In this document: positions 9,450-29,798 of the stretch, in pieces
Layout: each line of letters starts with the position of its first letter
How positions within the stretch are numbered: position 1 is the first letter of the stretch
Origin: an uncultured virus (IMG/VR IMGVR_UViG_3300042558_003703)
Taxonomy: Duplodnaviria; Heunggongvirae; Uroviricota; Caudoviricetes
IMG/VR virus record: IMGVR_UViG_3300042558_003703
Length of the DNA stretch: 56,334 nt
Strand: one strand, 5' to 3'
The notes under the pieces: model-generated
What the model was told of the DNA's origin: nothing
The model's database searches: none
Seen by the model: only the letters and a program-made list of their open reading frames with translations
Program-made: the position numbers and the translations under genes

Positions 9450-11351
9450 CTATCCCAATTCAGGATTGTTTTTAGCAAAGTTGGCAGCACTGAATCGCAT
9501 GCGATCAACAAATTTCATGCCCTGACCCACATATCCTTCGTGCCCGGGTTCGTTGTTGATGCTGGCCTGCACTGCCTGTGACTGTGAATCCAATTGACGC
9601 ACCAGTTGATTTTTAAGACTGGACACTTCAATGAATGCTTGGAATAGTGCTGCTACTGCCTGTTTGTTTTCGGTTGCCCATTCAAAAATTCTCGGAGCTT
9701 TGGCAGGTTCTTGTTGTTGTATCCACGACCCAAACCCGCTTACCAAGTTGTCATAGCTGCCGCCGCGCACACGACTGTTGATGTAAGTTTTAATCAAGGC
9801 AGGAAAATTGCTGATCTTTCTTGCACGTAATTCGGTAGGATCAAACAAGCGATCCATGGCAGCACCATACTGAGAAAGCAAACGGTTGGCATCTGCTACT
9901 GTTTTGGCATCTAATTTGATTGTTCGAGGATCTTTGAGACTGGGATCTAGTATAAGAAGCCCTGGACTATCTGCCAATGCTGCAGCACGAATGGGTTCAG
10001 CTGGTGCACCCGGTGCAGATAAACTGGTGTGTATGGCAACCGCGGCTGTGCTGTCGGCGATCTTTTTGCCCAGATCAGAATCCACAGGCACAGCATACTT
10101 GACAGTGTTGGGCTGGAATACCCATTGATTGCCAATACGCTGCGGAGTAGAAGAATAAAGTAAATCACCTTGTATGTAACCGCGAAAGTCTTGCGGAACT
10201 GCTCGGCGCAGCATAGGAAACAGGCGTTGATAAATGGCAACCAGTTCGCCACGTTCGCCGCCACGTTGTGCCATTATCTTGGCAATGTGTTCTGGGCTTG
10301 TGGCCAAGCCATCGTAGCCCTTGGCCAAAAATCCCGACTTGTCAGTCAGCACGAATTCACCTGAAGGTTTTCGCCCAAAGATGATGGCAGGTTTTCCATC
10401 CCATTTAACAGTGGTTTCTTGTGGACGCTGGGCTGCTGCTACAATGCCAGCAAGTGCTTGTTTAAGGCCGGCACTGGGACGTTGGTCAAAAATCATGTCC
10501 TCGGGGTGCTCAATGCGTACACCTTCTACAATGACCTGCATACCTTGGTTCACTATACGATCACGCAGACGTGCCATCATGCTGACTTCGTTGTATTCGG
10601 TGTATAATTCTGTGTTTTCTTTTACTAGCCCATCATCAAAAGGAATGCCTTCGCGTTCCATGTGTGCTTTGAAATCTGCAATTTTTTGTGGCTTTTTGGG
10701 ATCTGCTTCCAGTGCTCGCATGACTGCTTCTACGCTGGACAAATCTGCAAGAGTAGCATTTGGGCTCAATAGCATCTTTGCCACTTGTGCCGGATCGTCA
10801 GTTATTAATTCGTTGGTGGCACGATTCATTATGCCGTCGTTTTGATTCAACTTGTAACCCAGGCTCTTGGCCATGCTGTTCAGCATGATGTTACGCAAGG
10901 CACCTTTGTATCGGCTAGCAGGATCATTGCTTAATACAAACTGTGTCCAGCGTGGCTTGTTGCTGAACATGAAGTCTGTTTGCACAAACCCGTTCGCAGG
11001 GTTGCCGCCAATGGCTGCAAAGAAGTGTACCGCTGATCCAGTTTTTTTGATGTAGCGAGCAGGATCTACTTTTTGTTTCTGCGTCCAGACTGTTAGCACT
11101 TGTGTCAATTGATCTTTTGACATTTCCCCTGCATCAACAGACAAATCCAAGTCACCAGAGTCTGCTTTTCGTCCAGTGGATCCTAACCATTTAACAGGAC
11201 TGCCGTCGGCAGCTTTTTCGCTGGTTAAATCCAGTCCAGTAATGCCTTCCAGCCATTGCACAGTGGGCATGACGTCAGCTTGTTTAATTCTTTGCGTGAG
11301 TGGTGTCCCGGTGGAGTCTTTAAATACATTACCGCCTTCGTTTATATTCAT
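9450..11351 (-). CDS. Fusion of a Pol-beta-type nucleotidyltransferase and an RNA-ligase-like domain
   Basis: N-domain LGSTG..SGDLDL..VQTDF; C-domain VKWDG, IQGDLLY, HEGYV, MKFVDR (ligase motifs I, III, IV, V). Confidence 0.65.
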   Translation of the reverse strand: MNINEGGNVFKDSTGTPLTQRIKQADVMPTVQWLEGITGLDLTSEKAADGSPVKWLGSTGRKADSGDLDLSVDAGEMSKDQLTQVLTVWTQKQKVDPARYIKKTGSAVHFFAAIGGNPANGFVQTDFMFSNKPRWTQFVLSNDPASRYKGALRNIMLNSMAKSLGYKLNQNDGIMNRATNELITDDPAQVAKMLLSPNATLADLSSVEAVMRALEADPKKPQKIADFKAHMEREGIPFDDGLVKENTELYTEYNEVSMMARLRDRIVNQGMQVIVEGVRIEHPEDMIFDQRPSAGLKQALAGIVAAAQRPQETTVKWDGKPAIIFGRKPSGEFVLTDKSGFLAKGYDGLATSPEHIAKIMAQRGGERGELVAIYQRLFPMLRRAVPQDFRGYIQGDLLYSSTPQRIGNQWVFQPNTVKYAVPVDSDLGKKIADSTAAVAIHTSLSAPGAPAEPIRAAALADSPGLLILDPSLKDPRTIKLDAKTVADANRLLSQYGAAMDRLFDPTELRARKISNFPALIKTYINSRVRGGSYDNLVSGFGSWIQQQEPAKAPRIFEWATENKQAVAALFQAFIEVSSLKNQLVRQLDSQSQAVQASINNEPGHEGYVGQGMKFVDRMRFSAANFAKNNPELG

Positions 11352-26010: not shown

Positions 26011-27128
26011 AGGTATTTGTTTAGTTCCGGAAATACTTTAGCAAAACTTGTGCCACGATATTGGTCATGTTGTAGTAGATATTTTTTAAAGGTTTCAAAT
26101 AATGCACTATCATCAGAATTAGCAATCATCTCTTTCCAAGCATGTACATCCGAATATTGACTTTGTGACAATTTATCTATAATGGCTTGGCGGGCAGTAT
26201 CATGCCAAACACTTGGTCTCATATGTGCAGGAGTATGTACTCTCCCTATCCAAGGACGCGGCAATCCCATAGTATAGCACCATTCAAAAAATTCGTCAAG
26301 ATAATATATATTATAGGCACTTACACTATGACTTATACTTAACTGGATGTTATCTTTTTGTCGCTGCATGTATTGTTCCACATTGTGGAGTGTTGTTTTC
26401 CAATTGGCTGGATATCTTACATATTCGTATCGATCACCGATGGCATCTATACTTAATTGTATGTCTACATTTTGAAAACAACTCCAAATCTCCCACCATT
26501 CCGGATCTGGAAATATAGTGGCATTAGTTGTATAGTGCAATGACATATTTTGAGACTTCCCAGATTGAATATAATAACCAAGCAATTCTTTTTGTTCTGG
26601 CACTCCACTGAGCAATGGTTCTCCTCCGGGTATGTCAAGATGTATCAGATTTGGCGCAGCTTCGACAAGATCTTTTACAAAATTATTTTTATAAAACTTA
26701 TTATGAGCAATATCAATTCCGTAGATGGTTTTGTACTCTTTTTGCCATTTACTAGATGCATACGGACTGCATATTATGCATTTTAGATTGCAAGTATTAC
26801 CAAATGCAATACTTGCTGTTATAAATTCTTTACTGTCTAAATTGTATCGGTTGTAATGGTCTTTCCAGCGTGTGTTATCTAGGTTTCGTTTGCTTTCAAT
26901 ATTATTTTGTTCTTCAATTTTACAACGTTCACAGCCAGCAGGCCAATTTCCCTGCATAAATTCGCTGCGAATTTGTTGAAGAAAATCGCTTTTTGAATAT
27001 TGTTTTATAGTATGAGTTTGAATGTTAAATTTTTCTGTATTTTTATCAAACTGAAACTTACAGCACGGAGCTATATTACCCTTAGGGTCGATGTCAATAT
27101 TGGTCCATGGCGAATAGCAAAAGGTCAT
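26007..27128 (-). CDS. Radical SAM protein with N-terminal SPASM/twitch domain
   Basis: FCYSPW..PCC..CERC, CNLKCIIC, GGEP, YTTN, LSID. Confidence 0.92.
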   Translation of the reverse strand: MTFCYSPWTNIDIDPKGNIAPCCKFQFDKNTEKFNIQTHTIKQYSKSDFLQQIRSEFMQGNWPAGCERCKIEEQNNIESKRNLDNTRWKDHYNRYNLDSKEFITASIAFGNTCNLKCIICSPYASSKWQKEYKTIYGIDIAHNKFYKNNFVKDLVEAAPNLIHLDIPGGEPLLSGVPEQKELLGYYIQSGKSQNMSLHYTTNATIFPDPEWWEIWSCFQNVDIQLSIDAIGDRYEYVRYPANWKTTLHNVEQYMQRQKDNIQLSISHSVSAYNIYYLDEFFEWCYTMGLPRPWIGRVHTPAHMRPSVWHDTARQAIIDKLSQSQYSDVHAWKEMIANSDDSALFETFKKYLLQHDQYRGTSFAKVFPELNKYL

Positions 27129-27135
27129 AATGTAT

Positions 27136-27164
27136 ATAGTACACTATTTGCAGACAGAAGTCAA
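27136..27164 (-). promoter_or_regulatory. Sigma70-type promoter, leaderless, overlapping the terminator U-tract
   Basis: TTGACT-17bp-TACTAT-7nt-ATG. Confidence 0.65.
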
Positions 27165-27196
27165 AAAAAAGAGGCACCGTATTGCTACGATGCCCC
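27163..27196 (-). terminator. Rho-independent terminator
   Basis: GGGGCATCGTA-GCAA-TACGGTGCCTC followed by T8. Confidence 0.9.
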
Positions 27197-27240
27197 AAAC
27201 AGATTGTCTAAACAGGAGCGTTTACTACAGACAATCCGGG
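27163..27240 (-). ncRNA. Candidate 3'-end regulatory RNA with anti-SD loop
   Basis: Hairpin GATTGTC..TAAAC-GCTCCT-GTTTA.GACAATC before the terminator; its GCTCCTGTTT is complementary to AAACAGGAGC of three upstream leaders. Confidence 0.35.
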
Positions 27241-27278
27241 TAAAATCTATCTGCCAATTCTCGAATTCGTTCGTTCAT
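27225..27278 (-). CDS. 17-codon mini-ORF/remnant of the MNERIRELA family
   Basis: MNERIRELADRFYPDCL*; first 21 nt identical to the start of 27275-27511; ATGA overlap. Confidence 0.5.
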   Translation of the reverse strand: MNERIRELADRFYPDCL

Positions 27279-27511
27279 TCCATCATCTCAAAATGTTGTA
27301 ATAACCCAATTGCACAATCACTGACAGCATCATTATATGTTAGTTCGTTTGTGTCAGCAGTTTCTTTATCAAGTACCTGACTTCGGCAACTTTCATAACA
27401 TTCCTTGATCAATAATTCGGCAAACTTTTGAATTATTGTTGGACCGATCTCTCGTGTGATATACTTTGGTAATCCAGCCTGTTCAGCAAGTTCTCGAATT
27501 CGTTCATTCAT
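27275..27511 (-). CDS. MNERIRELAEQAG-family small protein
   Basis: Paralog of 27508-27714 (shared start, KFxEL..EC, HF end). Confidence 0.8.
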   Translation of the reverse strand: MNERIRELAEQAGLPKYITREIGPTIIQKFAELLIKECYESCRSQVLDKETADTNELTYNDAVSDCAIGLLQHFEMME

Positions 27512-27714
27512 GCTTCAACTCCGAAATGTTTGAGTATGGCCTCTTGAGGTGAGTTGCTGTGTGTCAGAGCCCAATGTTCAAAAGCAATGTTGCCACATTC
27601 CCGAACAATCAACTCAACGAACTTTTGACACTCGGGCATATTCCAATGCCCTACACCAAACAAGTCTGCTTCATATCCGGCCTGTTCAGCAAGTTCGCGA
27701 ATTGATTGGTTCAT
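27508..27714 (-). CDS. MNERIRELAEQAG-family small protein
   Basis: MNQSIRELAEQAG..KFVELIVREC..HFGVE; GGAG RBS. Confidence 0.8.
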   Translation of the reverse strand: MNQSIRELAEQAGYEADLFGVGHWNMPECQKFVELIVRECGNIAFEHWALTHSNSPQEAILKHFGVEA

Positions 27715-27725
27715 TGTTTAACTCC

Positions 27726-28745
27726 TTAGGCTGCTTTCATACAAGTGACTTCGGTCATGGCCTTCCATTTGAGCGGAAAGCTCTTACGCAAGTCAGCAAT
27801 CTTGATTGCCATACGCAAGCTCATCTCACGGAAGCGAGTAGCGTTGTGCGTCATGAAGTCAATGATCTCCTCTTGCGTTTCTGCGTCAAACTCGTATTCT
27901 TCAAACAACTGACCGTCGTTGGCAATCTGTTTGATACGCAAGATCTTGTCACGCATGGTGTCCAAGGTCAAGTCCAAGTAGTGGCAGCGTGATTGCAGTG
28001 CATCCAAGTGATCACGCAGTTTCTGGCTTTTCATCTTGTCAAACTTCAAATTAGTAATAAAAATCACTGTACCGTTGAAGTTGAAGCTGTCTGGCACACC
28101 TTCACGGCGTAGCACTGAGCTGTCCGACAACCACGAAATCTTACGCTTCTTGCCTGAGTCCAGGGCACCTTTCAACAAGTTCAAGGCCACGTCATCCAAC
28201 AGGATGCTGTCGCAGTCATCAAACACCAGCACACAGTTTTTGTCGCTGTACTTGTATAGTGTTTGGTACAGACCCAATGCTGTGGCTGAACCTTTGACCA
28301 CTTCAGCACGTAGTCGCTTGCCAGAGATCTTGTCAAACAAACAGGCAGCTTCGATAATTTTCTCCACGCCGTAGCTCTTGCCCACGCCCGGAGGACCCGA
28401 CACAATCATGGCACGGACATCACCGGCCACAGCGGCCTTGGTCATTTCGTCTAGGATTTCAAAACGCTCACGGATACGAGCCATGACTTCTTCGTCACTA
28501 GCCTCTGGAACAGGTGCTGCTTTCACAGCAGACGCTGTGGTGGCTGTAGCACCTTGGATTTCAATGTCTTCCATGCTGTCTACCTTGACACGAGCAATAC
28601 CAAACTCGGGTCCAAAAAATCCTTTGCTGTCGATGGTGACAAAACCACCCTTAGCACCGGCTGTATAGTCTTTGACCAATTCAAACACTTCGTTGTGTAC
28701 GGGTTTATTGCGATAAACGCCGTTGCGGATTAGGACTTGGGTCAT
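27726..28745 (-). CDS. AAA+ ATPase (early gene)
   Basis: SGPPGVGKS Walker A, LVFDDCD Walker B, IFITN sensor, ALQSRC Arg finger. Confidence 0.85.
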   Translation of the reverse strand: MTQVLIRNGVYRNKPVHNEVFELVKDYTAGAKGGFVTIDSKGFFGPEFGIARVKVDSMEDIEIQGATATTASAVKAAPVPEASDEEVMARIRERFEILDEMTKAAVAGDVRAMIVSGPPGVGKSYGVEKIIEAACLFDKISGKRLRAEVVKGSATALGLYQTLYKYSDKNCVLVFDDCDSILLDDVALNLLKGALDSGKKRKISWLSDSSVLRREGVPDSFNFNGTVIFITNLKFDKMKSQKLRDHLDALQSRCHYLDLTLDTMRDKILRIKQIANDGQLFEEYEFDAETQEEIIDFMTHNATRFREMSLRMAIKIADLRKSFPLKWKAMTEVTCMKAA

Positions 28746-28833
28746 TTACTGCTCCTGTTTTGTTAGTGTAAGTACATTATAGCCGATATTGTATTACCGG
28801 TCTACCACTTTTTATGTGTTGTTTTTATGCAAC
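28746..28833 (-). promoter_or_regulatory. Early promoter cassette 1
   Basis: GTTGCATAAAAACAAC-13bp-TAGACC-17bp-TATAAT...TAACAAAACAGGAG. Confidence 0.85.
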
Positions 28834-29160: not shown

Positions 29161-29247
29161 GTTTTACCCCGTTTTGTTAGCGTATATACATTATAGCAAT
29201 TTGGGTATTTCCGGTCTACCACTTTTTATGTGTTGTTTTTATGCGAC
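29161..29247 (-). promoter_or_regulatory. Early promoter cassette 2
   Basis: GTCGCATAAAAACAAC-13bp-TAGACC-17bp-TATAAT...TAACAAAACGGGG. Confidence 0.85.
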
Positions 29248-29411: not shown

Positions 29412-29499
29412 TTTGAGCTCCTGTTTTGTTACTGTATAAACATTATAGCTGGTAGTGAATTACTGGTCTACCACTTGTTAACTGTTGTTTTTATGCGAC
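29412..29499 (-). promoter_or_regulatory. Early promoter cassette 3
   Basis: GTCGCATAAAAACAAC-13bp-TAGACC-17bp-TATAAT...TAACAAAACAGGAGCTCAAAATG. Confidence 0.85.
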
Positions 29500-29669: not shown

Positions 29670-29798
29670 TTTGAGCTCCTGTTTTGTTACTGTAAAACTA
29701 GTATAGCATTTGGGCGGTTTCTGGTCTACCAAAATGTACTGTTTTAGCCACAAAAAAGCCCCAAAACCGGGGCTGAATTTTGTTGTATTTTTACAACA
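29670..29798 (-). promoter_or_regulatory. Early promoter cassette 4 with upstream palindrome
   Basis: TAGACC-17bp-TATACT...TAACAAAACAGGAGCTCAAAATG; TGTTGTAAAAATACAACA at 29781-29798. Confidence 0.8.
29752..29774 (-). terminator. Rho-independent terminator insulating the early cassettes
   Basis: AGCCCC-GGTTTT-GGGGCT followed by TTTTT. Confidence 0.8.

Follow-up and report, generated by a model that had tools for sequence, protein, structure and literature searches.

How can the 3′ end of an operon govern the translation of a gene at its start? In the passages that describe them, CarZ and OppZ of Vibrio cholerae are autoregulatory small RNAs (sRNAs) derived from 3′ UTRs (Hoyos et al. 2020, PMC7398697), and CarZ base-pairs to the 5′ UTR belonging to the first gene of its operon (PMC7398697; review PMC9438474). 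CarZ is reported there to lie at the operon's 3′ end with an intrinsic terminator, to exert a negative feedback that sets in only after full transcription, and, by experiment, to be processed by RNase E, bound by Hfq, and repressive. In Staphylococcus aureus, the 5′ and 3′ UTRs of the icaR mRNA are described as pairing with one another (Ruiz de los Mozos et al. 2013, PMC3868564); an anti-Shine-Dalgarno (anti-SD) motif located in a long 3′ UTR binds the transcript's own SD and prevents initiation, the complementary region spans 40 nt, RNase III cleaves the duplex, and Hfq is given as not needed. The same article relates how the hok mRNA of plasmid R1, which is short, encodes a toxin, and has an antisense RNA of separate origin, is silenced in its full-length form when its 3′ end folds onto the region of initiation.

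The phage locus analyzed here resembles CarZ, as described in those passages, in that its tail lies at the 3′ end of an operon with an intrinsic terminator and is complementary to the translation start region of a gene of that operon; a negative feedback acting only after full transcription is proposed for it as well. It differs in that the gene is a phage gene and the SD-centered seed is displayed in a hairpin loop, and in that the processing, Hfq binding, and repression of CarZ were reported from experiments, whereas for the phage tail they are putative; no sequence relation is claimed. With icaR, as reported, it shares an anti-SD motif in the 3′ UTR that is complementary to the SD of its own mRNA. 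The long 3′ UTR and the complementary region of about 40 nt are not seen here; the duplex is 10 bp in this phage and 7–11 bp in the family (mean about 8 bp), and tails of 20–80 nt are separated from the leader by up to 3.5 kb of operon. Neither a short toxin mRNA nor a separate antisense RNA of the kind described for hok was seen at the phage locus. A phage description of such 3′-end control was not found in the openly accessible main-text literature searched.

Results

The stretch of DNA analyzed (the window; 56,334 nucleotides of an uncultured virus) is part of a large T4-like phage genome with terminase, DnaB-like helicase, gp32-like SSB, and radical-SAM genes. The record G007 is the same phage where the two overlap (identical over 20 kb, 99.3% over 16 kb), and, at about 46% completeness, it served as a stand-in for the whole genome. 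A consensus scan of the minus strand places four sigma-70-type promoters in the interval bounded by the terminators at 29774 and 27196, each with a short-leader cassette behind it; the first three cassettes encode ORFs of 63, 61, and 111 aa, and the fourth a 339-aa AAA+ ATPase (Table 1). The ATPase is 33% identical to T4 nrdC.10 (E 3e-43), which PMC1524935 gives as no more than a weak AAA match. A PDB sequence search with the ATPase returned no match; its alignment-based model matches AAA+ proteins generally (TM 0.27–0.45), and its single-sequence model is poor.

Several features of the neighborhood deserve mention. Pfam and PHROG searches returned no match for the two small paralogous ORFs that follow the ATPase. 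The truncated third paralogue (27278-27225) overlaps the preceding stop codon (ATGA), and, were it translated, the carrier stem would be opened at its 5′ arm; in close relatives, the last gene of the operon stops just 5′ of that stem. The 63-aa and 61-aa ORFs (29669-29478 and 29411-29226, minus strand) end in the same SHKNN motif, and the DNA encoding it coincides with the region ahead of the next promoter, which suggests a duplicated shared cassette border. Host assignment from genome bins was tried and set aside, since its 13 hits carried mixed labels and were taken as mis-binned, and no tRNA genes were detected in the window or in six of eight G007 pieces scanned.

Table 1. Features of the ATPase operon and its 3′ end in the window, in order of minus-strand transcription.
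Feature	Position	Strand	Basis or remark
Terminator, upstream border of the four-cassette operon	29757..29774	-	Terminator scan
Third leader with AAACAGGAGC	29675..29684	-	63-aa ORF 29669-29478; promoter 29728-29700; possible co-target
Second leader with AAACAGGAGC	29417..29426	-	61-aa ORF 29411-29226; promoter 29470-29442; possible co-target
Non-matching leader, reads AAACGGGG	29167..29174	-	111-aa ORF 29160-28825; promoter 29218-29190
ATPase early promoter, sigma-70-type, TAGACC-17-TATAAT	28776..28804	-	Consensus scan
ATPase RBS AAACAGGAGC, predicted main target	28751..28760	-	Leader about 23 nt
AAA+ ATPase, 339 aa, PHROG 1250, T4 nrdC.10 homologue	27726..28745	-	Family and sequence match
Pair of small paralogues (ORFs of 68 and 78 aa) separating ATPase and tail	27275..27714	-	
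Truncated third paralogue, 17 codons, MNERIRELA-type	27225..27278	-	Stop inside the bulge of the hairpin
Carrier hairpin	27200..27238	-	Fold; weak 3-bp inner helix; stem covariation in relatives
Anti-RBS seed GCUCCUGUUU: loop GCUCCU (27219-27214) plus 3′ arm of the weak helix	27210..27219	-	Exact complement
U-rich linker before the terminator, putatively Hfq-module-like	27197..27199	-	
Intrinsic terminator: GCAA-loop stem (27196-27171) plus U8 tract	27163..27196	-	Scan and fold
Promoter-like site over the U tract, ahead of an apparently leaderless radical-SAM gene at 27128	27136..27164	-	

In the fold of the RNA of positions 27163-27245, an outer stem of 11 bp is joined across a bulge of 5 nt to an inner helix of 3 bp that closes the 6-nt loop GCUCCU; UUU, an 11-bp GCAA-loop terminator, and U8 follow on the 3′ side. 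The fold is unusually stable (z = -5.4), and none of 200 shuffled sequences was equally stable. The preliminary description had seen this minus-strand hairpin with its GCUCCU loop ahead of the GCAA-loop terminator, and both are present as described; the loop is identical, and the 5-bp inner stem that it had drawn is slightly out of register with the 3-bp inner helix of our fold. Opening the seed is calculated to cost 0.5 kcal/mol for 6 nt and 3.2 for all 10 nt, and the duplex is worth about -17; the loop is thus predicted to be accessible for pairing. The Rfam family BjrC68 (RF02353; 27162-27247, E 0.028, 21.3 bits, below the gathering score of 39) was rejected as an identity; it shares the layout of a hairpin and a GCAA-loop terminator, and the phage loop is not aligned. 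The Rfam scan gave only sub-threshold matches in the window and no hits in seven related loci.

The 10-mer GCTCCTGTTT at 27219-27210 on the minus strand is the exact complement of AAACAGGAGC, which occurs at 28751, 29417, and 29675 and has no other mismatch-free copy in the window. The match to three leaders reported in the preliminary description is therefore exact. Its cassettes are numbered by ascending coordinate, with the ATPase thus as cassette 1, and its remark that cassette 2 differs also holds, since the fourth leader has AAACGGGG. As a rough estimate, the chance of a 10-nt complement to one leader arising at most 60 nt from the terminator is 7e-4.

Is the complementarity maintained in related phages? 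Relatives were collected by relatedness of the ATPase and by exact identity to a 16-nt stretch of the hairpin, giving 310 sequences, with the ATPase in 302. A leader and a called terminator were available in 233, of which 150 were distinct and 148 had a tail of at least 15 nt. Terminators were called independently of the leader; the caller missed or mis-called some loci, and the mis-calls were kept in the statistics. The longest Watson-Crick run between a leader and its own tail was 8.36, 8.26, 7.98, and 8.00 bp at n = 148, 78, 52, and 33 (four redundancy levels), compared with 6.0–6.3 bp for foreign leader-tail pairs, and the own-pair value was reached in none of 20,000 permutations at each redundancy level, in a test that ignores the relatedness of the sequences. 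At n = 52, runs of at least 8 bp were found in 31 of 52 tails and in 1 of 51 and 2 of 52 control stretches.

For the analysis of single columns, 80 of 93 representatives could be anchored on the SD core and the tail core, and the other 13 were left out. Two bases past GGAG, the column forms Watson-Crick pairs in 65 of the 80 (T:A 38, C:G 20, A:U 6; shuffle maximum 43); columns +7 and +8 covary too, and columns -2 to -5 do not. In a tree test of the T:A trait, about six of nine independent pairs are concordant and none is opposite (median p 0.03); six of seven tree-corrected column tests are not significant, though they point in the same direction as the T:A trait. The carrier stem likewise shows two-sided changes in 8 of 9 pairs among 14 hand-picked, alignable related sequences. 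Among the 80, the core lies in a loop in 56, in an exterior region in 16, and in a paired region in 8, and it is unpaired with a probability above 0.5 in 70. By eye, there is one copy of the element per genome, only at the ATPase operon, among 36, 32, and 24 called terminators. These comparisons indicate a real, conserved RNA element. Conservation of the loop, which the preliminary description had named as a check, is borne out: in related jumbo-phage contigs the element closes the operon of a T4 nrdC.10-type AAA+ ATPase and covaries with the ATPase RBS.

Early cassettes are frequently duplicated in these genomes, and one could imagine that the match is accidental or a relic at the DNA level, either an inverted piece of a promoter cassette or the RBS of a gene on the opposite strand. 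The preference for own over foreign partners and the column covariation already contradict this, compensatory changes are found in several lineages together with a covarying carrier stem, and the plus-strand copy in the window has no start codon behind it; we find such an origin barely credible.

The element was not recognizable in 7 of the 93 representatives, was absent by eye from 13 of 30 additional loci in which no terminator had been called (and present in the other 17), and was not found at the ATPase homologues of T4, KARL-1, and VAP7; it is therefore dispensable. By eye, 6 of the 13 representatives dropped from the column analysis carry it.

Variants were also seen. Four relatives (L050, L162, L201, and L210) have tails of 20–23 nt after the ATPase stop that lack the carrier hairpin and complement the upstream side of their own leader, and the tails of L299, L033, and L049 contain a tandem pair of anti-SD motifs. 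The cultured Pseudomonas jumbo phage PA5oct (L081, NC_071039) has an 8-nt complement (10 with G-U) of its ATPase SD-spacer, about 23 nt past the ATPase stop (3810), within a local hairpin and without a terminator; that this is a homologue is doubtful.

Which leader is the partner of the tail? Set against the other promoter-led leaders at its locus, the leader of the ATPase is the better match to the tail in 52 of 68 comparisons, an equal one in 9, and a worse one in 7; against the best rival leader of each locus, it is better in 33, tied in 5, and worse in 5 of 43. In the whole record G004, the ATPase leader ranks first of 25 early leaders and of 523 ORF leaders; in G002, it is first of 19 early leaders, and one of 508 ORF leaders fits better. 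In G003, it reaches only 6 bp, with better fits in 2 of 24 early and 44 of 492 ORF leaders. With its own rather than a foreign tail, the ATPase leader pairs over 8.33 instead of 6.61 bp, and neighboring leaders over 6.31 instead of 5.91 bp (p 0.009). The partner across the family thus appears to be the ATPase leader and not the early leaders as a class. The G003 leader (131777) has drifted from its tail (130605), as have those of L031 and L048, and the close relative L287 keeps a perfect match; recent loss or retargeting is possible in these three.

The preliminary description had proposed a feedback RNA, made at the end of the early operon, that shuts down SD-led early genes or host genes while leaderless mRNAs escape. 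The feedback element at the operon's end is retained here as a conserved anti-SD complementary to an RBS of its own operon, with the amendment that it is tuned to the ATPase leader and not to the early cassettes generally. A general shut-off of SD-led early and host genes could draw on the leaders of the window phage that carry the 10-mer, two of them about 140 kb from the tail, on the slightly better match of neighboring leaders to their own tail, and on the early leaders of G003 that match the tail better than the ATPase leader does. Against this, the family-wide tuning points to the ATPase, the shared 10-mer is accounted for by cassette duplication, and, in a crude call, an SD core precedes the first ATG in only 12 of 68 long ORFs of the window. 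The canonical host SD is AGGAGG, and general anti-SD sRNAs of the cuckoo type carry CCUCC seeds. Host shut-off is unsupported because none of the 80 tails contains the canonical CCUCC anti-SD; GCUCC is found in 73 of 80. The seed thus appears to follow the phage's own GGAGC rather than the general consensus AGGAGG. We consider a general anti-SD function improbable.

The lineage of the window has its own register. Most relatives pair the gene-specific spacer between the SD and the start codon, whereas the window lineage is mismatched in this spacer and pairs the four bases upstream of the SD instead. The exact 16-mer matches number 24, of which 20 are the element and 4 are unrelated, and each of the 14 lineage contigs long enough to include the ATPase leader keeps the 10-mer (several are identical copies). 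The neighboring cassettes vary among these contigs, with no match in L138, L143, and L149. In G007, the 10-mer is found in 5 of 12 promoter-led leaders, three at the operon and two at the remote cassettes C1 6050-6111 (152 aa) and 11029-11088 (42 aa). The remote leader at G007:6111 is identical to the ATPase leader over 28 nt, so the sharing of the 10-mer reflects duplication of cassettes. No second antisense copy of the seed was found in G007. Because so many promoter-led leaders carry the 10-mer, silencing of several cassettes is possible in the window phage.

Discussion

The pairing of leader and tail is supported by covariation, and from it we infer repression, its timing, and its mode. 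We think it likely that the early ATPase operon ends in an antisense module for autoregulation, one that represses translation of the ATPase. We propose that host-type sigma-70 promoters would fire early in infection and that the ATPase would be translated from its short SD leader. As transcripts reach the terminator, the exposed GCUCCU loop would nucleate on the SD. The weak inner helix would then open, and a 10-bp duplex would cover AAACAGGAGC and presumably block loading of the 30S subunit. The predicted outcome is negative feedback that sets in with a delay and limits how much ATPase is made. The tail may work after its release, as a 3′ piece of about 80 nt that probably has the help of host Hfq, or while it is still part of the mRNA; if it acts in trans, it would also repress, in the window lineage, the other early leaders with the 10-mer. 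Two RNA sequencing runs contain matching material (word shares 0.07 and 0.05) as contigs of distant strains, mostly 85–95% alike, from which start, end, strand, and level are unreadable.

Covariation reveals pairing and not its outcome, and the icaR duplex is described as doubling as an RNase III substrate (PMC3868564). The pairing could therefore be real and serve mRNA stabilization, directed decay, or a loop-bound protein. A duplex centered on the SD in 80 of the 93 representatives (the anchor having been picked on the SD core) is hard to square with continued initiation, and we rate a purpose other than repression as more improbable still than the general anti-SD function.

Would a repressive tail act in trans or in cis? 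A released, 3′-derived, Hfq-dependent sRNA that represses new ATPase transcripts in the manner of CarZ comes close to an even chance in our estimation. The element shares its 3′ UTR with the intrinsic terminator of the operon, and a U-rich linker (TTT at most 8 nt before the stem) precedes 75 of 80 element terminators and 10 of 93 other terminators, a contrast inflated by the many comparison terminators that are bidirectional with A runs and by the U tract that doubles as a -35 box. U tracts are longer at element terminators (7.0 versus 6.0 U), and the combination of linker, terminator, and long U tract fits the Hfq-binding module in the definition given in PMC4509938. The match is not shorter where the tail is distant (8.75 bp, n = 52, versus 8.32 bp, n = 28; distances 34–3515 nt), and CarZ, as far as reported, likewise pairs only with its own first gene (PMC7398697). 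On the other side, phage-encoded Hfq was found in 0 of 5 records. The RNase E consensus is RNWUU, and a motif of this kind lies 5′ of the stem in just 20 of 62 cases, against an unmatched coding background of 14%. An early-type promoter upstream of the element was found in 0 of 80, as in 0 of 80 controls, a comparison of low power. We note also that in 51 of the 80 relatives the U tract leads, at most 16 nt from its start, into TTGAC, the -35 box of the gene that follows, which is apparently leaderless.

Alternatively, the tail may bend back to pair with the leader of its own full-length transcript, a closure of the icaR or hok type to which we give a tentative but substantial place. For the ATPase transcript (1,606 nt), the minimum free energy (MFE) structure includes precisely the 10-bp helix between leader and tail, although the fold is one of naked RNA, with the start site assumed, and the mRNA is a translated one. 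In naked-RNA MFE folds, 21 of 26 short-tail relatives close likewise, compared with 6 of 26 when cut at the stop codon, and the tail stays linked and tuned to the nearest promoter-led gene. However, leader-tail complementarity would serve trans action equally, and the icaR authors, in the account of that mRNA, themselves left cis versus trans unsettled (PMC3868564). Between a released CarZ-like sRNA and an attached icaR-like tail, we lean only slightly toward release.

With either mode, the element very probably extends to phages the 3′-end autoregulation reported in Vibrio and Staphylococcus. In the window lineage, we can further imagine that the brake on a single gene has been retuned to a trans-acting regulon switch that silences all AAACAGGAGC-led early cassettes, the remote two included; the complement would have left the spacer, which is specific to the ATPase, for the upstream side of the SD, which the cassettes share. 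We regard this step as unlikely. If it is true, a phage-encoded, Hfq-borrowing sRNA, and no protein regulator, would set when the early phase ends.

Finally, few post-transcriptional circuits are, to our knowledge, known in lytic jumbo phages. The locus offers a conserved RNA element with natural compensatory mutations more than 1 kb apart in a widespread uncultured phage family, and its natural variants (20-nt tails, loop-displayed tails, and upstream or downstream register) constitute a ready panel for the cis-versus-trans question. The element would also mark the nrdC.10-like ATPase as a gene whose dose these phages limit.
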